Made by a program: the position numbers and the translations under genes. Source: a virus. From it: DNA of 64,000 bases. The stretch is from the IMG/VR virus record IMGVR_UViG_3300047491_001507, one strand, 5' to 3'. Shown piece after piece: positions 31,218 to 59,569 of this stretch. Position 1 is the stretch's first letter. The number at the start of each line of letters is the position of its first letter. The notes beneath the pieces are model-generated. The model worked only from the letters and a program-made list of their open reading frames with translations, was not told where the DNA came from and made no database searches.

Positions 31218-31233
31218 TGGAGAAGAAAAATAA

Positions 31234-31308: not shown

Positions 31309-31319
31309 TGGAGGAAAAA

Positions 31320-31532
31320 ATGAAAAAATTTGATTCAAAAGAGGAATTAGACTTATTTTTGAGATCTAAACATCGTCCTTATGATGTTGATACCCATTGG
31401 CAAATGGAAGATATGGAATATCAGTTTCCCATTTGGACAGAATTTTTAGGGACCACCCATCTGGGGGCTGCATTCAAAGTAAGAAATCGTGAACAAATGT
31501 TGGCTCTTAAACAAATTTTTATGGATTTATAA
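31320..31532 (+). CDS. hypothetical protein (C-terminal portion of ORF 31050..31532, or an independent gene)
   Basis: ATG at 31320 preceded by GGAGGAAAAAA; in frame with the upstream ORF. Confidence 0.4.
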   Translation: MKKFDSKEELDLFLRSKHRPYDVDTHWQMEDMEYQFPIWTEFLGTTHLGAAFKVRNREQMLALKQIFMDL

Positions 31533-32512: not shown

Positions 32513-32694
32513 TGTCCAAAGAAAAGAAATGGTTGGAATACGCCCATCTTCATCCTGTAGAATGGAAATCCTACTTAGGTAGCTGTAATTGTTATGTTTG
32601 TGTGAAATATCGAGCAGATTTTGAACAGTGGCTAAAAAAACAAGACATTTCTCAAATTAATTCCATGAAATGGAAGGGAAATCGTGTCATCTAA
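32509..32694 (+). CDS. hypothetical small Cys-containing protein
   Basis: 61-aa ORF; ATGA overlap. Confidence 0.45.
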   Translation: MMSKEKKWLEYAHLHPVEWKSYLGSCNCYVCVKYRADFEQWLKKQDISQINSMKWKGNRVI

Positions 32695-32707
32695 AGGAGT
32701 TGAAGTC

Positions 32708-34048
32708 ATGAAATTTAAATCACTACAAGAAGCTTATAATCATGTTCTTGTTTATGGGCCTTCTCCTGAAGCAGAATCTGTCATTGCTACAAATTCAGCA
32801 TGGTCTTATGTTTATGCTCGTGATATAATTAAAGGCAGATTCCCTTTGGGCGAGGCAGCGATTGCCACAGATACAATCAGATCTTATGAATACGCTCTCA
32901 ATGTGCTTAAAGGTAGATTTCCTGAAGGCGAGAAAATAATTGCCACAAATCCACGGTGGTCATATGAATATGCTCTCAATGTGATTAAAGGCAGATTTCC
33001 TGAAGGCGAACCGGAAATTGCTGCAAGTAGTGTTTATGCTTGGCTTTATTCTAGAAGTGTTGGCTTGCTCAAACCGGAATTGAAATTTATGAAACCAGCA
33101 GAAGCTTACGATCATGCTAAAGATGTGGTAAAAGGTCGTTGTCCTGAAGCAGAAGTAGAAATTATTAAAAGTGCAGAATATTCTTATTATTATGCAACAA
33201 ATGTTTTGAAGTCTCGCTTTCCTGAAGGCGAAGCAACAATTGCTCAGGATGCACAATGGTCTTATCATTATGCTCTTTATGTTTTGAATGGGCGATTTCC
33301 GTTGGGCGAAGCAGTAATTATTCAAGATCCATTTTATGCATGTTACTATGCAGTAAATGTTATGAAAGATCGTTGGCCTGAAGCAGAGGCGACGATTTCA
33401 AGGTCTACTAACCTTGTCAGTAAATATGCAGATCAGTTTAAATTGGCGGTGACACTTGCTGACACACCGTTGAAATTTGCAACAATAAAAGAAGCTTATA
33501 GTTATGCTCAGAATCATCCAAGAGAACATTGTCCTGAAGCAGAAAAGATGATCGCTCAAGATGCTTCAACTTCTTATTTGTATGCTAGATATGTGATTAG
33601 AAAGCGTTTTCCAGAAGGCGAAGTAACAATTGCAAGAAACCCCTCTTCTGCTTATTATTATGCCAACGAAGTGATTGGTGGACGTTGGCCTGAATGTGAA
33701 GCAGAACTTGCTAAAAATGTACAATATGCTTATCTTTATGTTGTAAATATAATCAAGGGTCGTTGGTTTGAAGCTGAAGCAGCGATTGTTCAAAACCCAG
33801 AATATGCTTGCCTATATGCGATAAATGTTCTAAAGGCTCGTTGGCCTGAAGCAGAAGAAGGAATTTTGAAACATTCTGATCCTGTTCATGCTTATAAATA
33901 TGCTGAACATTTTAAATTGACATTCTCTAGTTTCATGCCGAAACCGAAATCCGAATTGACACTAAGTTCTGCAATTGATAAAATTGACACCATAGAAAAA
34001 CAAATAGCAAGTTTGGAAAAAAGACTTTCTAATTTGGAAGAACAATAA
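32708..34048 (+). CDS. 33-aa repeat family protein with C-terminal coiled coil
   Basis: AAGGAG SD before the ATG at 32708 (the track start at 32684 is a GTG); iterated VIKGRFPEGE units. Confidence 0.65.
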   Translation: MKFKSLQEAYNHVLVYGPSPEAESVIATNSAWSYVYARDIIKGRFPLGEAAIATDTIRSYEYALNVLKGRFPEGEKIIATNPRWSYEYALNVIKGRFPEGEPEIAASSVYAWLYSRSVGLLKPELKFMKPAEAYDHAKDVVKGRCPEAEVEIIKSAEYSYYYATNVLKSRFPEGEATIAQDAQWSYHYALYVLNGRFPLGEAVIIQDPFYACYYAVNVMKDRWPEAEATISRSTNLVSKYADQFKLAVTLADTPLKFATIKEAYSYAQNHPREHCPEAEKMIAQDASTSYLYARYVIRKRFPEGEVTIARNPSSAYYYANEVIGGRWPECEAELAKNVQYAYLYVVNIIKGRWFEAEAAIVQNPEYACLYAINVLKARWPEAEEGILKHSDPVHAYKYAEHFKLTFSSFMPKPKSELTLSSAIDKIDTIEKQIASLEKRLSNLEEQ

Positions 34049-39706: not shown

Positions 39707-39735
39707 TCGCCGTTCCTTGGAGCGGCGATTGTTAT
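39707..39735. terminator. possible bidirectional terminator at the convergent strand switch
   Basis: TCGCCG-ttccttggag-CGGCGA hairpin flanked by T-runs on both strands, between the last + gene and the first - gene. Confidence 0.35.
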
Positions 39736-41213
39736 TTTAATACCACAAATGTTACATCTTTGCCCTGCATGTCCTCTTGAGCATCCTCATAACTGTTACA
39801 AATCGGCTTTCCTGCTCGATTTAAAGAAGTGTTGATAAAACACTCATGTCCAGTTAATTTGCCGTATTCAACCAAAAGTTCATGTAGCCAAGGGTCTTTT
39901 TCTTTATAAACGACCTGTGGCCTTGATGAAAAATCACGATGCACTATGGCTGGTAAATATTGCTTGGCCATATCAGTACAAATACAACGATATTGCATGT
40001 ATTCGCCTTTGGGACCAATGAAATATTGATCAAAAGCTTCTGATGTCACTACAGGAGCCAAAGGACGATAAAACTCTCTCCCTTTTATGCCTTCTGAAAC
40101 AATTTTGAGGTTTTCTGCCTTGGCAGAAGCGAAAATAGATCTAAATCCCAAAGCTCTTGGCCCTGCTTCGCTTTTACCCCTCATTAAAGCTACAATTTTG
40201 CCCCTAGCAATGAGTTTGGCGATCTCTTGGGGTTCCTGTGCCCCTATTTGAGGCAAAGGCGTCTGAAGGGCATTAATGGCCGCAGAATTGATTTTGGGCC
40301 ACTTCTTATAAACATGGAAATAAGCAAGAGCAGCAGCACCTAAAGCAAGACCACTATCATTAATTGGCGGTCCAAAGACCAAGTCTTGAGTCATATTGTA
40401 AATCCTGGTGTTTAGCTCCAAAGCTAATGCAGTACCTCCACCAACAACCACTCCACGATTGCTGCCAAATTTTTCTATGTTTTCTTTGATATTGACCCAG
40501 ATTTGCTCAATAAGGAACTTGTAAAAACCAGCAATAAACTCCATATCGTTTGAATTTGGATTTTTGAACTCAATATAACACGGAACTATACTGTTCCAAT
40601 CATAAGAAACATTCAATAACTTCATGACATTTTTTGCATCCCACTCAATTGGGGGGATGTGTGGCAAATAACCAGCCAATCCCATGGCTTTTCCTGCCGA
40701 ATTATGTCCTAGAAGAGTGCAAATTGGAACACTTGAAGGGACAGGAAGGGCATCTTCTATTTTGTAAAAGCCTTTTTTGTTTATTACGCCTACAAGAGAA
40801 GCTTTATTGGGTTGAGTAGGATCGATGCCATATCCACAGCCATCATAGGCTAAAAAAAGCCTTTCTTTGTCATCTGGTCGATAAAGCCAAGAAGAAACAG
40901 CATGTGCTAGATGATGATCTACGACAAGATTGAATTTGGAGTCAGGAAAAAGATGGTGAGGAGATTTTAGGTATCTAATTAAAGATGGATCGTATTTAGG
41001 AGTTGGATAATTCTCTTCGCCTAAAGAAGTGATAGCAGTAACATAGTTTCCGTTTAATAAATCTGGAAAAGCGTTGAGAATGGGATCGGGGGTATGGTAA
41101 TGGTTTTTATTTCTTGGAAAGAATCTTTCAGCTTGAGCGTAAAATTCTAACTCCGAATCGTTAAAAATAGCAATGGAAACGTCATGTTTACCGTGATATC
41201 CTATAAATCTCAT
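39732..41213 (-). CDS. carbamoyltransferase of the NodU/CmcH/TobZ family
   Basis: VVDHHLAHAVSSWLY (the DHHLAHAASAF motif) and C-terminal GPRALGFRSIFAS (GPRALGNRSIL motif). Confidence 0.75.
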   Translation of the reverse strand: MRFIGYHGKHDVSIAIFNDSELEFYAQAERFFPRNKNHYHTPDPILNAFPDLLNGNYVTAITSLGEENYPTPKYDPSLIRYLKSPHHLFPDSKFNLVVDHHLAHAVSSWLYRPDDKERLFLAYDGCGYGIDPTQPNKASLVGVINKKGFYKIEDALPVPSSVPICTLLGHNSAGKAMGLAGYLPHIPPIEWDAKNVMKLLNVSYDWNSIVPCYIEFKNPNSNDMEFIAGFYKFLIEQIWVNIKENIEKFGSNRGVVVGGGTALALELNTRIYNMTQDLVFGPPINDSGLALGAAALAYFHVYKKWPKINSAAINALQTPLPQIGAQEPQEIAKLIARGKIVALMRGKSEAGPRALGFRSIFASAKAENLKIVSEGIKGREFYRPLAPVVTSEAFDQYFIGPKGEYMQYRCICTDMAKQYLPAIVHRDFSSRPQVVYKEKDPWLHELLVEYGKLTGHECFINTSLNRAGKPICNSYEDAQEDMQGKDVTFVVLK

Positions 41214-42019
41214 AGCAGTTCGTCAGCTTGTTTGTTGTCTAATGTAAATTTCTTCATTAAATGGCCTTTGATGGCTTGGTCAGATAGTCCTTGTTTTCTA
41301 AGCAATTGAATGAATTCTTGTGGTGTAAACTCTTGTTTTGGTTTAGACAGTGGTTTGCTTGCCTGTTTTTTGGCAGAATCTACAATTCTCTGAGTTGTTT
41401 GGGCGATATTTGCCTCAACATGATCTTGATGTCTTCCAGATTGATCTGCCCACATAATAATCAGAAGCAGCTTAATTCTTTGATTATTGATAATCTTTCC
41501 ATTGACAAAAAAGTCTTTAAGGAACTTTTTGGAGAAAATATTGCCACAAAGATGCATGTGGTTTTCTACTAGCCAATCAATTAGGGCTTCATGCTGGTGA
41601 TAAATTTGCTTGACCGCTGGATCAAAATCCTCTGAAACATACGCAATAAGAGGCTTGAAATGCTTAGATTCTTGATGTCCATAAGAGGTAATTTTGCCAT
41701 CTCGTTCTTCTGTACGAGTAGCTTTGGCAATATCATGCAAGAAAGCAGCCAGGGTCAATATGTCTTTTTCTTCATCAGATATATTGAAGTCTATATCTGA
41801 AATAACAGGACACAATGGATGATTGGGGTCTTTTTGAATATTTTGCAGCTTCAACCTTACTGGCTCTAAAGCAGCAACAACCATTTTGGTGTGGGTGAGT
41901 ACATCCCCTTCTTTATGGTGTTTTGCGTCTTGTTTGATATTGTCCAACAATTGGAGAAATTTACCCCCCAATTGGGAAATATCAATACTTTCTTGTAATA
42001 GCCAGTTTTTAAATTTCAT
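41210..42019 (-). CDS. HD-domain phosphohydrolase
   Basis: HHKEGDVLTHT...LAAFLHDIAKA, an H...HD metal-binding pattern. Confidence 0.6.
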   Translation of the reverse strand: MKFKNWLLQESIDISQLGGKFLQLLDNIKQDAKHHKEGDVLTHTKMVVAALEPVRLKLQNIQKDPNHPLCPVISDIDFNISDEEKDILTLAAFLHDIAKATRTEERDGKITSYGHQESKHFKPLIAYVSEDFDPAVKQIYHQHEALIDWLVENHMHLCGNIFSKKFLKDFFVNGKIINNQRIKLLLIIMWADQSGRHQDHVEANIAQTTQRIVDSAKKQASKPLSKPKQEFTPQEFIQLLRKQGLSDQAIKGHLMKKFTLDNKQADELL

Positions 42020-42035
42020 ATGTAATATATAGAGT

Positions 42036-43019
42036 ATGGAAGTTCAAAAACTCACATGTCGTTGGGTAAGAAGCGGATTGACCTTCGGAATAGATAAACT
42101 ACATGTTTGCTGTATAACTCATCATACAAATCTAGGTTTTGTTCCGATTTGCGAATATCATGGTGGAGATTTGCCAATTGACAAAATAATGCTTAAAAGA
42201 CAAGAATTATTGGTGCAAAACGTAATTGATGGATATGATTCCTGTAAGGGATGTATTTTTCAAAATGCTGAGCCATTCAAGTCAGAATATCTATTTGATC
42301 AGTTGAATTTTTCTCATTATACGCTTTGCAATCTTAGATGCAAGTACTGCTACATAGGGATTGACTGGAATAAAGGTGGAAACCTTGGGTTGAGGAAAAA
42401 CTATTACGATGTAATGCCAGCTTTAGAACAATTGACAAAAAACAACTGGTTGGACCCTCGATCTGCTATTTATTGGGGTGGTGGAGAGCCAACATTATTG
42501 CGTAGATTTGATGAGATTCTGGGTCTTCTTTTGGATTATGGAACATACAACTTCTTGAACACCAATGGAACGGTATTTTCTCAAGCAATATTTGATAAAT
42601 TAGGACAAGACAATCTGCACATAATATATGGAATTGACAGTGGACTAAATGAGACATACAAACAAATGAAAGGCAAAGACTTTCTAGATCAAGTGTTTGA
42701 GAATTTAAAAAGATATGTTAGTGTACATGGCGATTCAATCATTGTAGCGAAATATATTATAACAGATATTAATCATAGCATTCCTGAACTAGAAGAATTT
42801 TTTAGAAGAGTTTTGGAGACAGGGGTCAAAAATCTTTATATCGATTTAGATTCAACAATAAATGCAACCCAAGAGCATATAGATGCAATGGAATATTTGA
42901 GAGATTTATTTAAAGAGACAGATGTTGATGTAAAGTTTTGTGGCTGTGGAGTAAATGCTCTACACAACCAATCTATTCATTACCATGGCGACAAAATCTT
43001 ACCTAGCTTAATTGTGTAA
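42036..43019 (+). CDS. radical SAM enzyme with Cys-rich N-terminal extension
   Basis: CNLRCKYCY (CX3CX2C) and YWGGGEPTLL; the only sizeable + strand gene inside the - block. Confidence 0.7.
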   Translation: MEVQKLTCRWVRSGLTFGIDKLHVCCITHHTNLGFVPICEYHGGDLPIDKIMLKRQELLVQNVIDGYDSCKGCIFQNAEPFKSEYLFDQLNFSHYTLCNLRCKYCYIGIDWNKGGNLGLRKNYYDVMPALEQLTKNNWLDPRSAIYWGGGEPTLLRRFDEILGLLLDYGTYNFLNTNGTVFSQAIFDKLGQDNLHIIYGIDSGLNETYKQMKGKDFLDQVFENLKRYVSVHGDSIIVAKYIITDINHSIPELEEFFRRVLETGVKNLYIDLDSTINATQEHIDAMEYLRDLFKETDVDVKFCGCGVNALHNQSIHYHGDKILPSLIV

Positions 43020-43470
43020 ACAATTCTTTCAAATAGCCTTTTGCTGCTTCGTAACTGCCAGGAGCAGTTTTTTCAGAGTTTCCTGCGACATTTAGTGTTT
43101 TAATGTTGTTTTCGTTTAGCCAGTTGACCACATCTTCTACAGGTCTGGGATTTGCCAGATCTACATCAATGTAAGGTTTTTTATAGTATTTAATGGCTTC
43201 AAATGTGCAGATTTCTCCAGGGCTTGAGAAATCAAAAGCCAAACGGATTGTTCCATCACTATTTTTAACATTTAGCTTTGTTCTAGGAACATAGCTGCTG
43301 GATGTATGGGTGGTGCATCCGAATAGGTCTTTGTATTCTGGTTTACAACCATCTAAGGTTTTAAAACCATAAGGCATTAATCCTCCGGTTCTAAATCCAA
43401 ATTCTTTGGCTGTTTCTAATCCAGCAAAATCACTGCCTGTCTGACCGCCTGATATTACTTTTTTCAACAT
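43003..43470 (-). CDS. SLOG-superfamily / MoCo-carrier-like (YpsA-like) protein
   Basis: ISGGQTGSDFAGLETA...GG..P and LNVAGNSEKTAPG match the MoCo-carrier/SLOG signature. Confidence 0.55.
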   Translation of the reverse strand: MLKKVISGGQTGSDFAGLETAKEFGFRTGGLMPYGFKTLDGCKPEYKDLFGCTTHTSSSYVPRTKLNVKNSDGTIRLAFDFSSPGEICTFEAIKYYKKPYIDVDLANPRPVEDVVNWLNENNIKTLNVAGNSEKTAPGSYEAAKGYLKELFTQLS

Positions 43471-44183
43471 TATTTTTCCTCACATTTTAATAATTCATTT
43501 AGTAGCACTTTGTAAACATGTTCATTGCCAGGAGCACATTTCGGTTCTTTTGACCCATAACCATAAAATTCACAGATTGCTCTAGCAACTCCCAGCGAAA
43601 CGTTAAGGAAAGCATGAGTTATTAGCAAAACATCGATTTTTTCCCAGTTTTTGTCCAAGAATTTTTTGATTAGGGATGCATGATGTTCAGAAAACGGATT
43701 CGGTCCAGCGAATTCTCTGGCACCAGTAACACAAAACTTTAGTGTATCAAAATTATTATCTGCACTTAAATTGTAACCAAAATATATTCTTGCTACCTCG
43801 TGCGGATCTGCATCCTCATGCCAAAATCGCATATTGATGTGTGCCCAAGGTTTATCACATTTAAATTCTTTGGTTTGTTTTGGAGTCAAACACAGAGTTT
43901 TGTGAATGACAGGTGTTCCCACATATCGTTCCACTGGCACAATTATTTGATTGCCAGACTCGTCAGCAACACAAATTTGATCATGTTCTGCCATGTGTGT
44001 CAATAAATCATTTTCAAAAATTTCATCCATATTGGTCTCTTTTTTTCTTCTTTGATATTGATGATGAAAGGGACAATGATATCCGCTGACATGGTCCGAT
44101 AAAAGACAAATCGATTCATCTGGCTTAGTGGTTTTAATTGTTATTTTTTTTGGTGTTTCAGCCGACATATCATTCTTTCTCAT
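43470..44183 (-). CDS. hypothetical protein (several His/Cys clusters)
   Basis: 237-aa ORF; an alternative ATG 15 nt inside the track start. Confidence 0.5.
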   Translation of the reverse strand: MRKNDMSAETPKKITIKTTKPDESICLLSDHVSGYHCPFHHQYQRRKKETNMDEIFENDLLTHMAEHDQICVADESGNQIIVPVERYVGTPVIHKTLCLTPKQTKEFKCDKPWAHINMRFWHEDADPHEVARIYFGYNLSADNNFDTLKFCVTGAREFAGPNPFSEHHASLIKKFLDKNWEKIDVLLITHAFLNVSLGVARAICEFYGYGSKEPKCAPGNEHVYKVLLNELLKCEEK

Positions 44184-44685
44184 CCCACCAACGTTTTCCA
44201 GAGTAATATCCTGCCTCGTCCATCGCTTTTGCTACAATCTTGCACTCTTCACAACGACAAGTTTCTCCTGGCATTATACCCGATTCAAGAACCACATGAG
44301 CATTTGCATGCATATCCATCTGTGTTTTTTCAAGTTGTTCTCGCAATTGTTTATTATCCTCTGCCATTTGTTTCATAGTTGCCCGATTGCCAGCAACTAT
44401 TGACCACAATCGATGATGGGGTTGTGGTTCGGATATTTCTTCTTCGCCGTCTAGCTTTTCCGCAACTTCAATAATATGTTCTAGTTGTTTAATGTAGTCT
44501 TCGACATAAATCTTTTCTTCTCTATTGTATTTGACTGATATTACTTCTAAGTCTAGACATTTGGCTAATTTTTTAATAGCCCATCTGGCTCTGGCAAAGG
44601 AACCCTGTCCTGCATAGTCCTGATAGTCATATTCAAACCAAGCATTAAGCAAATCTAAACATTCTTTATATTCTTCAGGGTTCAC
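44170..44685 (-). CDS. hypothetical protein with C-terminal CRCEEC motif
   Basis: 171-aa ORF. Confidence 0.5.
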   Translation of the reverse strand: MNPEEYKECLDLLNAWFEYDYQDYAGQGSFARARWAIKKLAKCLDLEVISVKYNREEKIYVEDYIKQLEHIIEVAEKLDGEEEISEPQPHHRLWSIVAGNRATMKQMAEDNKQLREQLEKTQMDMHANAHVVLESGIMPGETCRCEECKIVAKAMDEAGYYSGKRWWDEKE

Positions 44686-44700
44686 TATTCCGCTCTCTTT

Positions 44701-44910
44701 CTAAGGCACAAAAACAATAAAATCGTAATAAGTCAACATACTAACAAATATAATTGTAGCCGATATAATAAAAACTGCGATTGTGTGTTTGGTTCTTGGA
44801 TGATACGGATATGCAATAACTGCTGTAACTAACATCATTACTACAAAAAGCACTACAAATAGTAGTAGCCAGAAAATGACAGAGAGAATTGGTTGAGTAT
44901 GAATAACCAT
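44701..44910 (-). CDS. small membrane protein (2-3 TM)
   Basis: Highly hydrophobic 69-aa ORF. Confidence 0.45.
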   Translation of the reverse strand: MVIHTQPILSVIFWLLLFVVLFVVMMLVTAVIAYPYHPRTKHTIAVFIISATIIFVSMLTYYDFIVFVP

Positions 44911-45002
44911 TTTTAAGAACGCTCCTTGGAACCTCTACTTTTAAATATTAACAAAAACACGATTGCCACCATCATCAAAACATTCAACTCGTTGATAACA
45001 TC

Positions 45003-45191
45003 TCAAAACCCTTCTACTCTGATCTTGAAATCGTAAACCGGTCCCAGTTGATCAGGAATATCAGTCGATTTATACACTGGCACTTCTACTGTTTTAGTTG
45101 TGCCATCTGCATTTTTAACTTCAATTTTCATAAATCTTACCGGAGCAACTGTTTTAGTTGCGTCATCTGCATTTTTAACTTCAATTTTCAT
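45003..45191 (-). CDS. small protein with an internal tandem duplication
   Basis: MKIEVKNADDATKTV...MKIEVKNADGTTKTV, from a ~57-bp DNA tandem repeat. Confidence 0.4.
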   Translation of the reverse strand: MKIEVKNADDATKTVAPVRFMKIEVKNADGTTKTVEVPVYKSTDIPDQLGPVYDFKIRVEGF

Positions 45192-45219
45192 AATTAATTC
45201 CTTTCATTTTCAAACATTC

Positions 45220-46008
45220 TCATATATCTGTTCCTGCTTCGGTTGCCAATGGCAAGCCAAGGACTGATTTGAACGATTCTTTCCATCTTATCTTAGGTTC
45301 GTCCTTGAGAATATTGTAAATCTCATGAACACGTTCGTCAGTCTGTCCCATTTCAATACGAGCAATTTCTTGAGGATCAGTGTCTGGTTGTACTCTGGTT
45401 CGAACATGGTTCATTTTGCCGATCCAGAAAGTGCCTGTAATCCATGGTTCTAGTTTGTGAAACAATTCAACGACATTCTTGCTGTCTAGCATTGGTTCCA
45501 CGCTGACACTTGTCTGAAACCCCTGCTCCCAAGCATATTTTAGACAATTGAAACGTTCAGCATAAGTAGGTGCCCCTGGCTCCCAATAGGCTAAAATATT
45601 ATCATCATAAGCTCCGATGGTGAATCGGAATTGAATTTGATCTTTTTGTTCAGCGAATTTTTCACAAATAGCTTTAATCACTTCCATGTACGGTTTAGAA
45701 ACTAACAGGATGTTATTGCCTGCTTTTGTTAATCGCTGAATGGCTTCTAGAGTTTCGGGCAGTATGTCTGGTGTAAGATCATGGGCCGTGGGAAACATTA
45801 CCACGCCATCATATTTTTTACTGAATCCAGTAAAAGGTCTTTCCTTGAGTTGATTATAAGTTGTTCCCCATGTTTCTGAATCACATTTGCCTAATCGAAC
45901 TGTACGTTCACGAGCATAGCAGTATCGACAACGATGAACGCACCCCAAATGAATGTTGAGTGAAACTTTTGCCCACTCCAAGGTGCCACTGATTTTTTTC
46001 TTTGTCAT
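45220..46008 (-). CDS. radical SAM protein, SplB/COG1533-like (spore-photoproduct-lyase-type DNA repair fold)
   Basis: GCVHRCRYCYAR (CX3CX2C followed by Y-A). Confidence 0.65.
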   Translation of the reverse strand: MTKKKISGTLEWAKVSLNIHLGCVHRCRYCYARERTVRLGKCDSETWGTTYNQLKERPFTGFSKKYDGVVMFPTAHDLTPDILPETLEAIQRLTKAGNNILLVSKPYMEVIKAICEKFAEQKDQIQFRFTIGAYDDNILAYWEPGAPTYAERFNCLKYAWEQGFQTSVSVEPMLDSKNVVELFHKLEPWITGTFWIGKMNHVRTRVQPDTDPQEIARIEMGQTDERVHEIYNILKDEPKIRWKESFKSVLGLPLATEAGTDI

Positions 46009-46163
46009 GATTGTTTCCTAAGACTTTTTTCCATTACAATGATGGTCAAAATAGCAATTATTGCTGTAATCCAGGCTAAGGTTTCGTGAAAGCGACCTTT
46101 TGATATGCTTATGCTTAAACATATTAGGCCGCATACAACACTAATATAATATAATATCATCAT
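46005..46163 (-). CDS. small membrane protein (53 aa)
   Basis: ATGA overlap with the radical SAM gene; hydrophobic; below the track cutoff. Confidence 0.35.
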   Translation of the reverse strand: MMILYYISVVCGLICLSISISKGRFHETLAWITAIIAILTIIVMEKSLRKQS

Positions 46164-46186
46164 CTTTAATCTGCAATTTCTAGTAC

Positions 46187-46384
46187 TTAATTCCTTTCCT
46201 TAAACTTTCTAATAATATCTAAGTTGAATATATCAGCATAATTTTGTGAAGGTATTGAATCCGAAAGAATCGTTGCTTCAGCTTCAAGCCAACGTCTTTT
46301 AAGTGTGTTTTTAGCATACAGATAAGCATAAGTTGGACTTGAAGCAATTATCGCTTCACCTTCAGGAAATCTGCCAAACAACAC
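46187..46384 (-). CDS. 33-aa repeat family, short or truncated copy
   Basis: Two repeats plus the family C-terminal ADIFNLDIIRKFKERN motif, downstream of the full-length copy. Confidence 0.45.
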   Translation of the reverse strand: MLFGRFPEGEAIIASSPTYAYLYAKNTLKRRWLEAEATILSDSIPSQNYADIFNLDIIRKFKERN

Positions 46385-46406
46385 ATCTCTAGCGTAAAAA
46401 ATTCTG

Positions 46407-47009
46407 TCATGTTGTTATTCTTTCCGCAAACTTCCTGATAACATCCAAGTTAAATTGCTTGGCGTAACAACGAGTACAATCATCACTTGTAAAAATTACC
46501 TTTTCTGCTTCAGGCCAACGTGCTTTAATTATTTCTTTGGCATATCTGACGGCACAATGTGGATCTTTCGCAATTGCCGCTTCGCCTTCAGGAAATCGAT
46601 CTTTTATTATCTTAATCGCATATTCACAAGCATAATATGCACTGGTGGCAATTACTGCTTCGCACTTAGGCAAACGTTCTTGAACTACTTCTTTGACGTA
46701 ATTATAACACCATTCTGGATTTTTTAGGATTGCTGGTTCGCCTGTGAGCCAACGTCCTCGCACAATATTCTTGGCATAAAAAAAAGCATATTGCGGATTT
46801 TTCGCAATAAGCTCTTCTGCTTCAATAATTTCACGAAAATGAGTGCCATTTTTGATTATGTAATTATAAGCCTCATATGCCGTTGCAAATTCAATTCTAC
46901 TGACACCGAGTATATCACCGAGTATATTATCGAACTGCCGACCCAGATCCTGATCTCCATCTTCAGCAAGCCTCTTAACCAGAAGAGCAATCACTTCGCT
47001 AATTTTCAT
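46407..47009 (-). CDS. 33-aa repeat family protein with N-terminal ISEVIALLVKRLAEDGD module
   Basis: 200-aa ORF with 4-5 repeats. Confidence 0.6.
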   Translation of the reverse strand: MKISEVIALLVKRLAEDGDQDLGRQFDNILGDILGVSRIEFATAYEAYNYIIKNGTHFREIIEAEELIAKNPQYAFFYAKNIVRGRWLTGEPAILKNPEWCYNYVKEVVQERLPKCEAVIATSAYYACEYAIKIIKDRFPEGEAAIAKDPHCAVRYAKEIIKARWPEAEKVIFTSDDCTRCYAKQFNLDVIRKFAERITT

Positions 47010-47038
47010 GTTGTTGTCCCTTTCAAGGATAAACTCAC

Positions 47039-47362
47039 TTATTTGTACAAATCGCCACTATCAATAAGATCTTGAAGTTCTTGAGATTTTTTGGATACGT
47101 ATTTTATATCGACCGCCACTAGGCAATTTTGTCTATAATCCAGAATGAATACTATGCCATTGCCATGGTTTACAATATATCCCAAACAAACTTTTGGGTA
47201 TTGCAGATCAATATAATAATAAGATAATCCTATTACATCTTCCCCATCTTCTATAAGATCCCCTAAAGAAGGCTCTTTGTATTTTTCTGCTTTTGGTGTT
47301 TTAATTGGCTTTGCTTGTTTTGCTTTAATCTTAGCCATGATTTGACTCTTTTCTAAATACAT
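47039..47362 (-). CDS. hypothetical protein
   Basis: 107-aa ORF; overlaps the radical SAM gene's stop. Confidence 0.5.
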   Translation of the reverse strand: MYLEKSQIMAKIKAKQAKPIKTPKAEKYKEPSLGDLIEDGEDVIGLSYYYIDLQYPKVCLGYIVNHGNGIVFILDYRQNCLVAVDIKYVSKKSQELQDLIDSGDLYK

Positions 47363-48351
47363 TCTTCAATAGGAATTGTGTCAAACGGACGGGTTCCAGA
47401 AAGAAGTGCATTCCCACAGGTAATTCTTCCTTCATCTTCAGCACGAGAAGCAATAAATACTAATACATCGTATCCTGCCTTTTTCAGTGCTTCCTCATGT
47501 TCTGTGTACGGATGGTATGTTGTATAATCTCCACATGTTTCAATACCCCATGAATTACATGAAAATGTCTTGTGCATGGGAGTTAATTTGCAAATAAACT
47601 TATCAGGATCAAAGTATTTCAGTAGGATATATGGATCAATTTCATAACCCGCAACTGCAAAATTCAAGGTAATCTTGCGGCCAAGAACGTCCAAATCTTC
47701 AACAATCTTGGCTATGTCTTCTAGACTACAAGCGTTTCCGTTAAACATCTCCTCTCGTTCTTTTTCATTCGTGGAATTGATGCTTAATTGCAATCCTGCA
47801 TCGCCACTCATGACAGTATTCTTAAACTGCATCCACTCGTGAATAAAAGAACTGAGGTTGCGATTGTTCTTTGGCATCATCGTAGATACCACTTGGTGAA
47901 CTACATCGAATTTGTAGCTCAACATTACATTCATATGTTTGGCTACAGCAAGCACTGATGGATTAAAGGTGGGCTCCCCCATTCTGGCATAATGAATGTT
48001 GAGCCGTTTTCCATGATTTACATCAGGATGTAAACTAAGACCAGCACTCACTTGTTCGATCATATCAGAACCAGTGGCATTTCTTCCTGGCCCGACATGT
48101 GGAACGTCACAAAATCTACAACCAATTGAGCATCCATATTGTGTGCTAATGGTCACGACCCATTTCTCTTCCAAAGGAAGCATTTGGGTGTGCAAAACAG
48201 GTTTTGGGCTACGAGTTAGGCCCATAGCGTCACACTTCAGATTGACTTCTTTGCCATAATCACCAATTGACAGGCACTCCAATAGACCATACTTTCCTTG
48301 AATGACAAGAATATCGCCAGTGGGAACACTAAATTGTTCGTGAATTTTCAC
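47353..48351 (-). CDS. radical SAM enzyme of the RlmN/Cfr family (rRNA/tRNA adenosine C-methyltransferase-like)
   Basis: STQYGCSIGCRFC (SxQxGCxxxCxFC), YARMGEPTFN (MGMGEPLxN) and C-terminal RITCGNAL (the DIDAACGQL Cys). Confidence 0.65.
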   Translation of the reverse strand: MKIHEQFSVPTGDILVIQGKYGLLECLSIGDYGKEVNLKCDAMGLTRSPKPVLHTQMLPLEEKWVVTISTQYGCSIGCRFCDVPHVGPGRNATGSDMIEQVSAGLSLHPDVNHGKRLNIHYARMGEPTFNPSVLAVAKHMNVMLSYKFDVVHQVVSTMMPKNNRNLSSFIHEWMQFKNTVMSGDAGLQLSINSTNEKEREEMFNGNACSLEDIAKIVEDLDVLGRKITLNFAVAGYEIDPYILLKYFDPDKFICKLTPMHKTFSCNSWGIETCGDYTTYHPYTEHEEALKKAGYDVLVFIASRAEDEGRITCGNALLSGTRPFDTIPIEECI

Positions 48352-48640
48352 AATTTAATCCTTGCTGTCCAAAATAATAAGTTCTTCCATGATGACTTTT
48401 CTCGTTTATTACAATCTTGTATGTTCTGGCGTAAGGATGAAGAGCAATGGCTTCTTTGTAAAATGATATAAGATCTTTTTGAACAGAATCATACACAACA
48501 GCATAATTACATAAATAAGCGGTTACTGTTGCTCTTAAAAGCGTTGCTTCTTCTAAGACCTTTGCCTGCGTAAACTTGACTGGTAGTAACAAAGATGCCA
48601 AACCGCCCAACACTGTTTTCAGAAGATTTCTACGATTCAT
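48329..48640 (-). CDS. putative Tat-secreted protein (paralog of 50354..50833)
   Basis: MNRRNLLKTVLGGLASLLLPVKFTQA is a twin-arginine signal; ORF trimmed to this Met. Confidence 0.55.
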   Translation of the reverse strand: MNRRNLLKTVLGGLASLLLPVKFTQAKVLEEATLLRATVTAYLCNYAVVYDSVQKDLISFYKEAIALHPYARTYKIVINEKSHHGRTYYFGQQGLNCENSRTI

Positions 48641-48881
48641 TTGATTTTTTTCTTTCTGAAAATTTGATGTTGATATCCAGATTGAATTCTTCAGCATAAA
48701 GACCGGCATACATGTAAGGAAGCAATAATTCGCCTTCAGGCCAACGATCTTTGATTACATGTCTGGCATACATGTATATCCATCCTCTGTCCTCTAGAAT
48801 CATCTTTTCTGCTTCCGCACAACGTCCATACTTGTAAGCATAATCATAGGCTTCCATTGCTGTTTCAAATTTTTTTGTCAT
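48630..48881 (-). CDS. 33-aa repeat family, short copy
   Basis: 83 aa with ~1.5 repeats plus the EEFNLDINIKFSERK C-terminal motif. Confidence 0.5.
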   Translation of the reverse strand: MTKKFETAMEAYDYAYKYGRCAEAEKMILEDRGWIYMYARHVIKDRWPEGELLLPYMYAGLYAEEFNLDINIKFSERKKSNES

Positions 48882-49570: not shown

Positions 49571-49850
49571 CGGATTGCCTCAATTCTGACAGTAATTGTT
49601 TGCCGCTTTCGGTTAATTTCCAGTGACATGCCCATTTGTCGTTTCTAGGATCAGGAAATTGTTCAATGAAACCATGTTTTTCTGCTTCTGTTAATTGATG
49701 TTCCTGCATGGCAAAAGCATCAATTTGGTCTTGTTCACAGAACCATACATCGTAACTGCCACGATAAATGTCTTTGCGTCCGCTACTTTTTCCTTCTAAG
49801 GATTCAATTTTTTCTAAAACCCAATACATCCAATAAAATTCAGAAGTCAT
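49554..49850 (-). CDS. hypothetical protein
   Basis: 98-aa ORF. Confidence 0.5.
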   Translation of the reverse strand: MTSEFYWMYWVLEKIESLEGKSSGRKDIYRGSYDVWFCEQDQIDAFAMQEHQLTEAEKHGFIEQFPDPRNDKWACHWKLTESGKQLLSELRQSDGKMS

Positions 49851-50353
49851 TTACTGACCCAACCCCTTAAAAGATCTACTTCTATACGAAGAGAATTTAT
49901 ATCCATAATAAGTTCCTTGGTTTTTTCATGAACCTCATTACGAATATTATTTATTTGAGTGTTTAAATCTCTATGTAATAAGAGAGTGTATCTGGCAACA
50001 AAATTAAATTGTCCATGTTTGAGAATTGCCTCCTCCCCTTCTGGCCAACGTCCTTTTATTACTTCTATTGCGTATAGACAAGAATAATCTGGATGAGTGG
50101 CAATTACTGCCTCGCCTTCAGGGAATCGGCCTTTAAGTATTTTTTTTGCATAATAATAAGCAAGCACAACATTTTGAGCAATCGCTGCTTCGCCTTCAGG
50201 GAATCGGCCTTTAAGTATTTCACCTGCATATCGAAAGGAGTATTCTGGATCAGTGGCAATTTTGGACTCAAGTTCGGGACAACATCCCTTAACTTCATTT
50301 AAAACGTATATGTAAGCTTCTTTTGCTGTTTCAAATTCAGGTACTTCGCTCAT
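49847..50353 (-). CDS. 33-aa repeat family protein with C-terminal coiled coil
   Basis: 3 repeats, then a DLNTQINNIRNEVHEK coiled coil. Confidence 0.6.
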   Translation of the reverse strand: MSEVPEFETAKEAYIYVLNEVKGCCPELESKIATDPEYSFRYAGEILKGRFPEGEAAIAQNVVLAYYYAKKILKGRFPEGEAVIATHPDYSCLYAIEVIKGRWPEGEEAILKHGQFNFVARYTLLLHRDLNTQINNIRNEVHEKTKELIMDINSLRIEVDLLRGWVSK

Positions 50354-50835: not shown

Positions 50836-51390
50836 TTACCCCCATCTAACATGAACATTGTCACGAAGATAATTAATTTCTTCATGAATTCTCTCTATAT
50901 CATTTTGAAAATCGTTCATTTGATCACATAAAATCCGCAGCAAAAACAACGAATATTTAGCAGCTAAATCTGGTTCCGTATTAATTGCTGCTTCGCCTTC
51001 AGGAAAACGTCTCTTTGTAATTTCGGTCGCATATGCATAACTCTTCCCTGCATCTTTAGCAATTGCGTTTTCGCCTTCTGGGAAGTGTCCTCTCATTATT
51101 TCTATAGCATAACAGTAAGCATACCAAGCATCTTGGCCAATTGCATATTCGCCTTCATAATATCTGCCTTTAATTATGTCAACGGCATACCAATAAGCAT
51201 ATTGTGGGTCTTTAGCAATTGCCTTTTCGCCCTTAGGAAATCTACCTTTAAGTATATTCTTGGCATACTCATAAGCACTTTTAGCATCTCTAGCAATTTT
51301 TGACTCAAGTTCAGGACAACGTCCCTTGACTTCATATAAAACGTGTGTGTAAGCTTCCCATGCTGTTTTAAATTGAGACGATTTAGTCAT
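50836..51390 (-). CDS. 33-aa repeat family protein
   Basis: 4 repeats plus a C-terminal coiled coil; near-duplicate arrangement of 49847..50353. Confidence 0.6.
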   Translation of the reverse strand: MTKSSQFKTAWEAYTHVLYEVKGRCPELESKIARDAKSAYEYAKNILKGRFPKGEKAIAKDPQYAYWYAVDIIKGRYYEGEYAIGQDAWYAYCYAIEIMRGHFPEGENAIAKDAGKSYAYATEITKRRFPEGEAAINTEPDLAAKYSLFLLRILCDQMNDFQNDIERIHEEINYLRDNVHVRWG

Positions 51391-53730: not shown

Positions 53731-54072
53731 TCATTCATCATCGAAACAACCCCTGATTACTCGCCAAATTTCTTCCCTATCTCTATCACAAATTTGATCA
53801 AATTTAACATATCCTTGTAAGACCAAGGTTTGTGCTGCTTTGATACATTTTTTATCTAAATCCGAACGATGAATTGGTTGTTTGTCCAATAGTCTGATTC
53901 TTGATTCTAATGTTGTAGTTAATGCTTTGAGAGAATCTAGTTCTTGTCGAACTGTAAGGAAATGATCATTTTCCAAAAATAATTTTATAGTGCCGACATC
54001 ATTGTGCATGTACAAGAAAAACAATAACAAAAGTATAAAACCAATACTCAATAATAATACTGGAAACCACAT
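53731..54072 (-). CDS. TM protein with coiled coil
   Basis: 113-aa ORF with a hydrophobic N-terminus. Confidence 0.45.
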   Translation of the reverse strand: MWFPVLLLSIGFILLLLFFLYMHNDVGTIKLFLENDHFLTVRQELDSLKALTTTLESRIRLLDKQPIHRSDLDKKCIKAAQTLVLQGYVKFDQICDRDREEIWRVIRGCFDDE

Positions 54073-54190
54073 TAAATTATCCTTCTAAAAAGACTCTCTT
54101 TAGTATGTACAACAAGAGACACACATCAGCAAATATCAAAAAACTCACTATAATTGCCAGAGTTTTCCAAATTCGATCATGCATGTTAAA

Positions 54191-54454
54191 CTATTCCTCA
54201 AAGAATTCTATGTCAGTGACGCTTGTTTTAACTTCTGTCTTTACACATCCATCATCATCACTAAAACCACCAGCTTCAGTTAAAATTTCCGCAATATATT
54301 CTAAATTATCAATCTCCGAAGATAGCAATTGTTTAGCACTCAAGTTTTTTACGCCATAATCTGCTACTTCTGTTTCAAACCAACCAGTGATCGTTAAACT
54401 GGATTTAAATCTGACTTTCTTTGTCATTATTTTTGCCTTTTTCATCATTTCCAA
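54191..54454 (-). CDS. hypothetical acidic protein
   Basis: 87-aa ORF. Confidence 0.4.
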   Translation of the reverse strand: MEMMKKAKIMTKKVRFKSSLTITGWFETEVADYGVKNLSAKQLLSSEIDNLEYIAEILTEAGGFSDDDGCVKTEVKTSVTDIEFFEE

Positions 54455-54818
54455 TTGTGTACACCATGGCTATATAAGCACGTTTACTACTACTGGGAAT
54501 TTCCTTAATGATGTTTTCTTCATTCCTGACAAATTCAATAAATCTGTTGATGTCAGCGAATTCGGATTTCATACCGCCTCTTTTTTCGCTAACCCAATAC
54601 AAAATCCCGCACCAACCATATTTAAAGAATAAATCTCCTACCTCGCTTAATTCTTCATCAGAGACATATTCGCAATCAGCAAGTGCCCAACCCCAAGTAT
54701 CATTCATATTGAGGGTTTGCAACCACTTTGGCCCTTCATCTTCCAACAATTCTGATTCCTCATCGAAATAGAAAACTCCTGCTGCCCGTAACATCTGTCT
54801 TGCTTTTTCTGTATTCAT
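54405..54818 (-). CDS. hypothetical protein
   Basis: 137-aa ORF, Trp-rich. Confidence 0.5.
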   Translation of the reverse strand: MNTEKARQMLRAAGVFYFDEESELLEDEGPKWLQTLNMNDTWGWALADCEYVSDEELSEVGDLFFKYGWCGILYWVSEKRGGMKSEFADINRFIEFVRNEENIIKEIPSSSKRAYIAMVYTIGNDEKGKNNDKESQI

Positions 54819-55037
54819 TTACCATTCCTTTCCAATAGCATCATATACACACGTTGTTATCGCCAAAAAACCTACAGCATACAAAACAATTGCCGACCAG
54901 AAAGCCAATGTAGCTCCAGTAAATGCAGCTTTGCTTAGCCATTCTACCAAAAAAGGCCAAGCTACGAAAACTCCTACGATCTGAATTGAATTAAAAACTC
55001 TTAACATAAAAGACTCCTTTAGTATACAAAATTTCAA
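54819..55037 (-). CDS. small membrane protein (2 TM)
   Basis: 72-aa hydrophobic ORF just downstream (on the - strand) of a terminator hairpin. Confidence 0.45.
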   Translation of the reverse strand: MKFCILKESFMLRVFNSIQIVGVFVAWPFLVEWLSKAAFTGATLAFWSAIVLYAVGFLAITTCVYDAIGKEW

Positions 55038-55047
55038 CTATTTAAAA

Positions 55048-55092
55048 AAGCCCATTTCGAACAAAAACTATCGCTTGAAATGGGCTTTTTGG
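55048..55092. terminator. bidirectional rho-independent terminator
   Basis: AGCCCATTTC ... GAAATGGGCT 10-bp stem with T-runs on both strands. Confidence 0.55.
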
Positions 55093-55275
55093 AAAAATTT
55101 TTACTAAAAATCTTCTGTTTTTTCTTCTGGCTTTTCCTCTGGCTTTTCTTTAGGCTTTCCAAGCAAAAGCAAAAGGTCACGAATACTCACAACAGCAGAG
55201 CATCCAATGCCTTCTTTAGCCAAGTTTTCTTCCAAATCTTTACATCGCATGTCTTCTGGGATAGGCACATCCATT

Positions 55276-55659
55276 TCATTCCTCCAAATTCATAAAAGGG
55301 AAACCAAAAAAATCGTTTGTCATATATCCACAACCATATCCACGACCATCACCATCATAACTTCCTTGTCCTGAACCCAATTGATCAGAACTAAAATTTA
55401 ATCCATCGTGTCCAGGTATGCCACAGTATCCAGGCATGCCGCCATATCCAAACCCATGGCAATTTCCTAAACCAAACCCATTGCCACAACACACAGCGTC
55501 TTCGTTACGGCCAAGCCATTTGTCATTATATAATTTAATGCTTAGTATCTGAACATCATCATCGCCATGCCCATCTCCATTGTCAAAACCTCTCCCTGGA
55601 GTATTGCAGTTGTGATCTCCAAGCCCTTTGCCGTCACCGAAACCATCATTAGATTTCAT
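55276..55659 (-). CDS. Gly-rich GxGxG family protein
   Basis: GFGDGKGLGDHNC...GNGFGLGNCHGFGYGG...GDGRGYGCG. Confidence 0.55.
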   Translation of the reverse strand: MKSNDGFGDGKGLGDHNCNTPGRGFDNGDGHGDDDVQILSIKLYNDKWLGRNEDAVCCGNGFGLGNCHGFGYGGMPGYCGIPGHDGLNFSSDQLGSGQGSYDGDGRGYGCGYMTNDFFGFPFMNLEE

Positions 55660-55661
55660 AC

Positions 55662-55880
55662 CTAATTTACTCCAAATTTACAACCACAATTTGGACAACC
55701 TTCTATATATTCTGGGTCTTCTTTTGAAACAATCGTATCACAATGTTCATGGCAGTAAAAGCCTATTTCTCCAGCTTCTCTGTCATAAGCAATTGCTTCT
55801 ACAGGGTTTTGACAGTCATCATACTGACATCTATCTGGATATTCAAGCGGTTCATCTCGATTAACAATTTTAATTGTCAT
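55662..55880 (-). CDS. Cys-rich zinc-binding small protein
   Basis: CQYDDCQ...CHEHC...CPNCGC. Confidence 0.5.
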   Translation of the reverse strand: MTIKIVNRDEPLEYPDRCQYDDCQNPVEAIAYDREAGEIGFYCHEHCDTIVSKEDPEYIEGCPNCGCKFGVN

Positions 55881-56158
55881 ACTTTTACCTCCAAGCCATG
55901 TAATTCTGAATTTATTCCTTCGTACATGCTAGTTAGGTCATTGGCACGATGAGTGTCAATTTCATGTTGTTCAAACGGTAATGGCATGCATCTAAACCAA
56001 ACCGACACCACTTGTCCATTATAAGTTTCCACATCTAGATGTGTCGAACTATGGACTGTACCCCCATCACCGTAATATCGTGTGCCAGTTTTTGCGAATT
56101 CTTTTTGACGTTTTCTATAATTTCTGTCATGCCAGTAGTTTTTTAACCAGCCAAACAT
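55877..56158 (-). CDS. hypothetical protein
   Basis: 93-aa ORF; ATGA overlap. Confidence 0.5.
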   Translation of the reverse strand: MFGWLKNYWHDRNYRKRQKEFAKTGTRYYGDGGTVHSSTHLDVETYNGQVVSVWFRCMPLPFEQHEIDTHRANDLTSMYEGINSELHGLEVKV

Positions 56159-56418
56159 GTTAAATCACTTTCTATTTGAAGAAGAAAATAAACATAATTT
56201 ACAGCCTAATGCTACGGCTAGTCCTGTCTCTTGTATAAATTCAAAAAACGTACCGAAACTTGCAATACAAGAAATAAGAAATAAAAATGCCAAAATTAAA
56301 ATATGATTTTTATCCCAATTTAATAACATTTTTAACCTCTTGTGTAAGCTTTAAACTAGTTATGCTTGAAATGTATCAATTTTGAATACTAATTTCAATT
56401 CCAAAACGTAAATAATAC

Positions 56419-56700
56419 ATGAAATTCAAAGATTTTTTAATTGAAAGCTGCAAAGAGCCCGATTTCAACACCCTCAAGAAAAACAAAGTCAAATTAACAG
56501 ACGAAGAACGAAAAGAGGTGATGAAATCAGATGCAGTCTGGCATCATGGGTCGAATGGAGAACCGACTGCGGCTGTGTGGAAATCAGAAGTCGATGGTAA
56601 AATTTGGTACGTTACAAATACTCATCGAGCTTATAATGTTCGACCCACTCTAAAAGGTGCTATCAGCAGATATCACAAATTCATTAAAGGCACAGCTTAA
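56419..56700 (+). CDS. hypothetical protein (lone + strand gene in the - block)
   Basis: 93-aa ORF after an AT-rich gap (56160-56418) that may hold divergent promoters. Confidence 0.45.
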   Translation: MKFKDFLIESCKEPDFNTLKKNKVKLTDEERKEVMKSDAVWHHGSNGEPTAAVWKSEVDGKIWYVTNTHRAYNVRPTLKGAISRYHKFIKGTA

Positions 56701-57000: not shown

Positions 57001-57010
57001 AATTCTCCCA

Positions 57011-57851: not shown

Positions 57852-57853
57852 AT

Positions 57854-58767: not shown

Positions 58768-58780
58768 GATTTTTCCTCAC

Positions 58781-59544: not shown

Positions 59545-59569
59545 TATTCTCCATTATTAAACAAAATTT

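Follow-up and report, generated by a model that had tools for sequence, protein, structure and literature searches.

A run of modification-type enzyme genes in a jumbo phage is probably a mosaic of accessory units, with a carbamoyltransferase and a radical SAM enzyme as its one linked pair

Do closely packed genes for modification-type enzymes in a phage genome necessarily serve one pathway? The question is raised by an 8.6-kb locus (positions 39732-48351) in the IMG/VR virus record IMGVR_UViG_3300047491_001507, where genes for a carbamoyltransferase (CT), an HD-superfamily protein, three radical SAM enzymes (rSAM1 to rSAM3), and a nucleotide-binding protein of the SLOG fold (cpYpsA) lie among small and unassigned genes. 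The locus belongs to a 64-kb window, by which we mean the whole stretch of DNA analyzed, out of a jumbo phage contig of at least 306 kb, and is placed at the 3′ end of its minus-strand arm. A preliminary description made from the sequence alone proposed that these genes form one cooperating nucleic-acid modification or anti-restriction module. We think it probable, with some reserve, that the locus instead comprises at least four independently inherited accessory units and that CT and rSAM1 are its sole functionally linked pair, directed at a glycan.

We fetched loci around close homologs of the locus genes, with 6 to 10 kb of flank on each side, and compared the first 27 with the 207 open reading frames (ORFs) of at least 70 aa in the window. 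In each of the 27, the bait gene was the sole gene shared with the window. Nine loci carrying rSAM3 homologs (eight from IMG/VR plus Bacteroides phage Versailles, 46 to 62% identity) held no other locus gene and no common neighbor family beyond those common to related phages; in Versailles, the rSAM3 homolog sits alone between ParB-like and Holliday-junction-resolvase genes. Neither another locus gene nor a recurrent neighbor was found in 12 cpYpsA loci (11 from IMG/VR and Maribacter phage Colly_1), and IAS virus, which has a fused cpYpsA copy, is likewise without other locus genes. The three rSAM2 loci had no other locus gene alongside the bait. In about 40 related loci, the neighborhood comparison, a check that the preliminary description had suggested, returned a single recurrent association, that of CT with a radical SAM enzyme bearing an N-terminal Cys-rich domain, and no co-occurrence of any other two locus genes. 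The single cooperating module is thus not borne out, since homologs of its genes fail to co-occur elsewhere, an outcome that the description itself had named as counting against its proposal.

The arrangement of the genes also divides the locus. Stop/start overlaps group them into four coupled units, namely, HD with CT; unk171, unk237, and cpYpsA; tm52 with rSAM2; and rSAM3 with unk107, and these units are set apart by repeat-family and membrane-protein genes. The HD stop and CT start overlap by 4 nt, and the two genes are probably translationally coupled; the cpYpsA start is overlapped by the unk237 stop, unk171 overlaps its adjoining gene by 14 nt, the tm52 stop and rSAM2 start overlap by 4 nt, and unk107 and the rSAM3 stop overlap by 10 nt. 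All locus genes are on the minus strand save rSAM1, which is squeezed in, 16 nt from the start of HD on one side and overlapping the 3′ end of cpYpsA on the other. Because homologs do not co-occur and the units are separately coupled, we read the locus as a mosaic and not as a conserved system. Families were assigned from Pfam, PHROG, and NCBIfam profile searches together with the ORF listing, with all 10 larger proteins of the locus scanned. The gene list of the preliminary description, including its small membrane proteins and repeat-family genes, agrees with ours to the exact coordinates, and its family calls hold at the superfamily level.

The CT gene (39732-41213, minus strand) encodes 493 aa and is assigned by Pfam, PHROG, and NCBIfam to the TobZ/NodU/CmcH-type O-carbamoyltransferases. 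Its C-terminal part matches Pfam Carbam_trans_C (PF16861) at 2e-44 and 151.6 bits (cut-off, 27), Carbam_trans_N (PF02543) is matched at 27.7 bits (cut-off, 24), and phrog_1601, "Nol-like carbamoyltransferase," is matched at 2e-71 across residues 1 to 492. The single chain joins a Kae1-like N domain to a YrdC-like C domain. Its best match among solved structures is TobZ (1e-33, 120 bits), and the nearest solved relatives are TobZ, NovN, and GdmN, all sugar or antibiotic O-carbamoyltransferases. In a phmmer alignment with TobZ (3ver), the motifs HHLAH, YDGCG, NDSGLALGAA, GPRALGFRS, YRPLAP, SSRPQ, and NTSLNRAGKPI are kept, so that both TobZ active-site motif sets appear intact from sequence. CT therefore shares with TobZ, NodU, NolO, CmcH, NovN, and GdmN the two-domain build, the metal-binding HxxxH, D, and D residues, and the YrdC-like carbamoyl phosphate/ATP motifs. 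It differs from them in a highly divergent Kae1-like half, where Carbam_trans_N is matched over its last 80 positions only, and, relative to TobZ (570 aa), in being shorter and phage encoded. No model of the t6A synthase TsaD/Kae1 matched CT at an E value of ≤0.01 in NCBIfam, which listed only NodU and a trace of HypF. If it works as TobZ does, CT would use carbamoyl phosphate and ATP to form carbamoyl-adenylate, from which the carbamoyl group would pass to a hydroxyl.

Phage carbamoyltransferases can act on nucleic acids. An enzyme of uncultured phages modifies 5-hydroxymethylcytosine (5hmC) in DNA and RNA, with three positions (TobZ W408, G421, and R423) tied to specificity, while on contigs in which cytosine is unmodified, the reported neighbors of carbamoyltransferases are glycosyltransferases (PMC8670742; Yang et al., eLife 2021). 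This 5hmC enzyme is of the same superfamily as CT and equally phage borne, but the identity between them is limited to the C-terminal half (28% over 247 aa), and the score of 62 bits compares with 120 bits to TobZ. At the three specificity-linked positions CT has L, G, and R, making it TobZ-like at two of three, whereas the characterized 5hmC enzyme, the one published sequence from which we took the residue consensus of the 5hmC clade, has I, C, and T; where CT reads PRALGFRS, that enzyme reads PRALCNTT. Probing the whole 64-kb window (39 kb upstream to 23 kb downstream) for ThyA and ThyX with tblastn gave a best E value of about 2, while the probe found a ThyA in a control locus (L020) at 1e-69. 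Pfam scans of 40 window proteins, comprising the locus genes and most ORFs of >145 aa elsewhere in the window, detected no thymidylate-synthase homolog, PRA-PH/MazG-like protein, or dCMP deaminase, and 5-HMUDK kinase, aGPT-Pplase, DpdA/QueC-E, and similar proteins were absent from the Pfam, PHROG, and NCBIfam scans of the 10 larger locus proteins. Judging from its sequence and setting, CT does not match the known 5hmC carbamoyltransferase in similarity, specificity residues, or neighborhood.

The second member of the recurring association is represented here by rSAM1 (42036-43019, plus strand; 327 aa), a radical SAM enzyme (Radical_SAM, 1e-17; motif CNLRCKYC). A homolog with 59% identity (E = 5e-126) indicates that this ORF, which the preliminary description had already called as an opposite-strand radical SAM enzyme, is a real gene. 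Ahead of the C98xxxC102xxC105 triad, rSAM1 carries an N-terminal SPASM/twitch-like domain with four invariant cysteines (C8, C25, C70, and C73). The protein is rare, with 8 matches among 5.8 billion proteins and no relatives in a single-query scan of IMG/VR. Its core is nearest to MoaA, viperin, and SPASM-type enzymes, and the four-Cys auxiliary domain is likewise a feature of the SPASM/twitch enzymes (anSME, MoaA, BtrN, and peptide maturases; NF033640, "N-terminal twitch"). It departs from these in that its auxiliary domain is N-terminal, its family scores are far under cut-offs (e.g., 26.5 versus 170), and its relatives occur in polysaccharide clusters, not in peptide-maturation clusters.

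The pairing itself is best seen in the nearest homologs of CT, which lie on a 177-kb contig (L002, 59% identity) and a 459-kb contig (L003, 49% identity); on both, CT is found amid three or four radical SAM genes of the N-terminal-SPASM type, on alternating strands and with overlapping ends. A profile scan of metagenome contigs provided nine further members of the CT clade, giving 12 loci including the window, with identities of 49 to 62%. Eight of these 12 loci, from about five lineages, have between one and five N-terminal-SPASM radical SAM genes within 6 kb. The remaining four lack such genes; three of them are contigs of ≤3.3 kb, and the fourth (L056) is without any radical SAM gene within 11 kb. 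The rSAM1 family, which we call A1, is homologous to the family of SPASM radical SAM enzymes that accompany CT elsewhere, A2 (hhalign probability, 97%; E = 2e-11), and because of this homology, the adjacency of CT and rSAM1 in the window mirrors a conserved theme. We infer that the two are functionally coupled, with rSAM1 and its auxiliary-cluster domain performing radical tailoring on the molecule that CT would carbamoylate or on a precursor of it.

The cluster on other large phage contigs (L002, 8804-17655; L003, 8863-16077; L053 and L055, 203-10489; and also L048, L051, and L052) has features of its own. It consists of a TobZ-like carbamoyltransferase, duplicated in L002, and one to five N-terminal-SPASM radical SAM enzymes, and the latter show an odd cysteine spacing, HCNIGGE...NPACIMC, instead of CxxxCxxC. 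A GGACT-fold protein is also encoded in the L002 and L003 clusters. Our literature searches turned up no description of a phage cluster combining CT with N-terminal-SPASM radical SAM enzymes.

What the pair might act on is suggested by the company its relatives keep. Twelve cellular relatives of rSAM1 come from Thermodesulfobacteriota, Geobacteraceae, Planctomycetota, Elusimicrobia, and cyanobacterial single-cell genomes. Among the neighbors of 10 bacterial relatives, Radical_SAM was the most frequent Pfam family, followed by Glycos_transf_2 (10 proteins) and Glycos_transf_1 (8 proteins); other frequent families were ABC_tran, Wzt_C, ABC2_membrane, Epimerase, and RmlD, a set typical of O-antigen-type polysaccharide clusters. 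Two phage clusters were scanned for genes beyond CT and the radical SAM enzymes. That of L053 has a Methyltransf_24 protein, a Glyco_trans_1_2 match barely over its cut-off, and a sub-threshold match resembling family 2 glycosyltransferases (GT2), and that of L003 has a clear GT2. The context of CT and rSAM1 thus favors sugar tailoring over DNA modification. Given these glycan neighbors, the kinship of CT with TobZ, NovN, and GdmN, its mismatch to the 5hmC enzyme, and the glycosyltransferase flanks reported in PMC8670742, carbohydrate O-carbamoylation combined with a radical step is the favored chemistry, and the target would most likely be a sugar or glycan, such as a host surface polysaccharide or other glycoconjugate. 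Of the modification-type interpretation in the preliminary description, the domains, the richness in enzymes, and the CT-radical SAM pair remain, while the single pathway does not, and the context of the pair is one of glycans rather than nucleotide metabolism.

Between CT and rSAM1 lies the HD gene (41210-42019, minus strand; 269 aa). Its match to Pfam HD (PF01966) is weak (2.7e-5; 24.8 bits versus a cut-off of 22), and the metal-ligand residues H34-H35 and H95-D96 are present. Models of the GlnD, CCA-enzyme, and HDIG subfamilies all scored far under their cut-offs, no sequence match was found in the PDB, and a single-query IMG/VR scan returned no relative. On these residues and this match, the protein is predicted to be a bona fide HD-superfamily phosphohydrolase, an orphan not classifiable further. 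We considered it as a conserved partner of CT and rejected the idea, as none of the 11 other CT-clade loci has an HD gene or homolog. The HD protein may remove a phosphate from the substrate of the pair; alternatively, it may be an RNA-end phosphoesterase with no connection to the pair. The coding-strand GC skew of CT and HD is lower than that of their neighbors, and their GC and GC3 contents are ordinary; we do not take this as a sign of recent transfer.

At the other end of the locus, rSAM3 (47353-48351, minus strand; 332 aa) is the gene for which a nucleic-acid substrate is plausible. It belongs to phrog_24834 (1e-105), a family of more than 6,444 matches that are mostly phage or metagenome borne, the top 120 at 62 to 89% identity. 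An RlmN-type radical SAM core with a CxxxCxxC triad (C74, C78, and C81) is matched over its first half by the RlmN model TIGR00048 at 5e-11. The methyl-carrying C355 of RlmN (AACGQ) has its counterpart in the invariant C312 (ITCGN), a correspondence taken from sequence alignment only. In contrast, the position of the resolving C118 of RlmN, seven residues ahead of the cluster loop, is occupied by T67, which is invariant in 44 of 44 aligned members and is placed there by phmmer, hhalign, and MAFFT alike. Foldseek by itself gave only a weak result for rSAM3. The first 60 residues form a small beta-sheet, whereas RlmN has a longer N-terminal region that was largely unaligned in MAFFT. Curated scores fell under every cut-off (TIGR00048, 42.1 bits versus 290; Cfr models, about 29 bits versus 468 to 550).

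rSAM3 therefore resembles RlmN and Cfr in fold, core, and methyl-carrier cysteine and probably, as far as the alignments indicate, in its use of SAM. Because the resolving cysteine is missing and all curated cut-offs were failed, we do not count rSAM3 as a member of the RlmN/Cfr group. Since these enzymes are its closest structural relatives, a nucleic-acid substrate is plausible; rSAM3 would probably act alone on a nucleic-acid base, and the full two-cysteine cycle of RlmN would be impossible for it. Its coupled neighbor, unk107 (47039-47362, minus strand; 107 aa), has no Pfam family. Searches of the literature on phage RlmN-like enzymes gave nothing relevant.

The remaining radical SAM gene, rSAM2 (45220-46008, minus strand; 262 aa), is coupled to tm52 (46005-46163, minus strand), which encodes a 52-aa protein with two transmembrane segments. 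It carries the motif CVHRCRYC, matches Radical_SAM at 2e-8, and shows weak similarity to Rv2578c, "mobile pair B," and spore photoproduct lyase (SPL). The SPL models were sub-threshold (PF20903, 16.6 bits versus 27; TIGR04070, 15.6 bits versus 400). rSAM2 thus shares the core and a weak profile similarity with the COG1533/SplB group (spore photoproduct lyase, Rv2578c, PA0069, "radical SAM mobile pair protein B," and phage Gp37/Gp68, PF07505), but its equivalog scores lie an order of magnitude under the cut-offs, and no "pair A" partner gene was seen. By sequence, it is SplB-like just in the loose COG1533 sense, so that of the earlier SplB-like call, the broad relationship stands and the photoproduct lyase affinity does not. 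The family comprises at least 1,130 proteins, relatives of which bear the JGI automatic name "DNA repair photolyase"; a single-query IMG/VR scan found no relatives. The contexts of three rSAM2 homologs, with nicotinate phosphoribosyltransferase (NAPRTase)/NAD synthase, HD_4/thioredoxin, and NADAR genes, are unrelated to the locus, and rSAM2 would be a stand-alone enzyme related to COG1533/SplB. In the first of these contexts, a 33-kb phage-like contig (L043; Logan ERR13731143), a homolog with 63% identity lies between the NAPRTase and NAD synthase genes, and Thg1, UDG, and an NMNAT-like gene are found on the contig as well. This setting might suggest a connection of the rSAM2 family with phage NAD salvage modules.

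The last of the four units centers on cpYpsA (43003-43470, minus strand; 155 aa), a circularly permuted YpsA of the SLOG nucleotide-binding fold. The protein is a full-length, high-scoring member of PF12694 (2e-30; 106.1 bits versus a gathering threshold of 26.2, over profile positions 1 to 144 of 145) and matches PDB entry 3imk, a "putative molybdenum carrier protein," at 4e-15, which confirms the SLOG/MoCo-carrier-like call. We know of no biochemical function for the family, and literature searches on cpYpsA function gave nothing relevant. A feature that sets the window copy apart from the family is its translational coupling to a protein of phosphatase fold without the catalytic residues. 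This protein, unk237 (43470-44183, minus strand; 237 aa), is itself without a Pfam family, has 12 homologs among 1.84 billion representatives, and has no relatives in a single-query IMG/VR scan. Six of the 12 family members match Pfam DSPc, the dual-specificity phosphatase family, and in the family alignment (A7), the loop IHCxAGxSRS is replaced in the window protein by ITH-AFLNVSLG, without the Cys and the Arg; its closest relatives also lack both. From this alignment, unk237 is likely a divergent pseudo-phosphatase of the dual-specificity-phosphatase fold, its true start probably being M52 at 44030. A single-sequence AlphaFold model was unusable (pLDDT, 35), and the relationship is derived from the family alignment. 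The third gene, unk171 (44170-44685, minus strand; 171 aa), has sub-threshold profile matches only. Together, the three would be a lineage-specific, translationally coupled trio around an SLOG protein that otherwise travels alone.

How well does the mosaic reading fare against its rivals? Least probable among them, in our judgment, is that all or most of the genes serve one phage pathway for anti-restriction by hypermodification of phage DNA or host tRNA, in which CT would carbamoylate, HD would process nucleotides, and a moiety would be built or attached by the SLOG protein together with the three radical SAM enzymes. The enzyme families it invokes are confirmed, a phage carbamoyltransferase acting on 5hmC in DNA and RNA exists (PMC8670742), rSAM3 has an RlmN-type core, and tRNA genes plus one for a Thg1-like enzyme occur in the window, too. 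Within the locus, little space separates the genes, which apart from rSAM1 run in one direction, and all of the genuine CxxxCxxC ORFs of the 64-kb window, three in number, fall inside 6.3 kb of the locus, a clustering with a p value of about 0.03 under random placement by a rough estimate. Set against this are the lone co-occurrence of CT with radical SAM genes in about 40 related loci, the separately coupled units with repeat and membrane genes between them, and a CT without the features of the 5hmC enzyme in a window without a thymidylate-synthase-like gene. PADLOC defense and anti-defense models gave no match beyond a generic similarity between the radical SAM cores of rSAM1 and pVip, and we dropped membership in a defense or anti-defense system on that account. 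Another reading, which we rate as highly improbable, takes CT alone to be a DNA or RNA 5-hydroxymethylpyrimidine O-carbamoyltransferase of the MetaGPA 5hmC enzyme type, with its hydroxymethylase partner outside the window. The two-domain fold and cofactor motifs are the same, the known enzyme is phage borne and widespread, and about a fifth of the genome was seen; this reading is opposed by the closer score to TobZ, the residues at the specificity-linked positions, the missing ThyA/ThyX homolog across the window, and the radical SAM, glycosyltransferase, and methyltransferase genes that flank members of the CT clade.

A more serious rival, though still an unlikely one, is that every gene is independent and the adjacency of CT and rSAM1 coincidental, the locus being a dump of unrelated genes of moron or auxiliary type where a transcription arm ends. 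Several observations speak for it, and some of them also weigh against the linked pair that we favor. CT and rSAM1 are read from different strands and the HD gene separates them, rSAM1 falls in subfamily A1 whereas the enzymes that accompany CT elsewhere fall in A2, the bacterial A1 loci are without CT, the phage homolog of rSAM1 with 59% identity has no CT, HD, or cpYpsA in its vicinity, and the L056 carbamoyltransferase is without a radical SAM neighbor. Also unfavorable to our reading are the lack of a glycosyltransferase adjoining CT and rSAM1 in the window, the clustering of the three radical SAM genes, which is mildly above chance, and the fact that phage pathways can be lineage specific, so that non-co-occurrence elsewhere is no proof of independence here; with 64 kb of at least 306 kb seen, a hydroxymethylase or glycosyltransferases could lie elsewhere. 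Coincidence is harder to reconcile with N-terminal SPASM/twitch enzymes flanking the CT clade in about five lineages, often on alternating strands with overlapping ends, and with the homology of A1 and A2. We therefore retain the mosaic with a linked, glycan-directed CT-rSAM1 pair. It is doubtful, but conceivable, that at least one unrecognized nucleic-acid modification is nevertheless encoded here gene by gene, whether as one-cysteine C-methyl or adduct chemistry by rSAM3 on host or phage RNA or DNA or, separately, as CT and N-terminal-SPASM clusters building a carbamoylated, radically tailored sugar on phage DNA or the virion instead of on a host polysaccharide.

The smaller genes between the units, all on the minus strand, complete the locus. 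Translation predicts a 69-aa small membrane protein with two hydrophobic segments (tm69, 44701-44910), and sm62 (45003-45191; 62 aa) is built from a 20-aa unit, MKIEVKNAD..TKTV, that occurs twice; in the DNA, this corresponds to a 60-nt direct repeat with 96% identity. Both rep65 (46187-46384; 65 aa) and rep200 (46407-47009; 200 aa) belong to a repeat family with 78-nt coding repeats. At least 10 paralogs of this family, with repeats of about 26 aa and the motif [RK][FW]PEGE, occur on both arms of the window, on the plus strand at 7938-8798, 25121-26881, 26878-27270, 27273-29504, and 32684-34048 and on the minus strand at 46407-47009, 48630-48881, 49847-50353, 50836-51390, and 63357-63926; their Pfam matches (FRD3 and HTH_35) are sub-threshold only. 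Where the converging blocks of plus- and minus-strand genes meet, between the plus-block end at 39668 and the CT stop codon at 39732, a GC-rich hairpin with a 9-bp stem followed by a T-run (39707-39728) is a probable terminator. An Rfam scan found no riboswitch, a repeat scan found no boundary repeats, and promoter-like sites in a scan equaled the shuffled expectation. Megablast of the 8.6 kb against INPHARED phages gave no match, nor did tblastn with a large neighboring protein; neither search revealed a close cultured relative.

Farther out, features of the plus arm (326-479, 683-1654, 3983-4522, 5365-6225, 7205-7960, 10022-11131, and 21040-21804) include tRNA-Arg, tRNA-Lys, an HD_4 (RelA/SpoT-type HD) protein, a weak DSPc-like protein, a homolog of Thg1-like tRNA-His guanylyltransferase, a DFP (CoaB-like) protein, a PspA/IM30 homolog, and a flavoprotein (CoaC-like) fused to an M23 peptidase-like domain. 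A tRNA-Gln (31233-31309) with an Rfam score of 43 bits, which ARAGORN calls too, is enclosed by a 160-aa ORF (31050-31532, plus strand); since both are on the same strand, the ORF is probably not a gene. Positions 54000-62300 are densely filled with minus-strand ORFs of 70 to 137 aa and have no long gene, with a GC skew of −0.3 to −0.4 versus about −0.13 in the rest of the minus arm.

For the most part, these findings are ordinary: the genes all fall in known superfamilies, and they establish no new system. They illustrate that modification-type domains, even when densely clustered in a jumbo phage, do not have to amount to one pathway, and that a neighborhood test can pull such a cluster apart. 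The phage cluster of CT with N-terminal-SPASM radical SAM enzymes would point to phage-directed tailoring of glycans, and the rSAM3 family, which is missing one of two mechanistic cysteines, is a tractable target for the enzymology of radical SAM methylation and for phage-host RNA and DNA biology.

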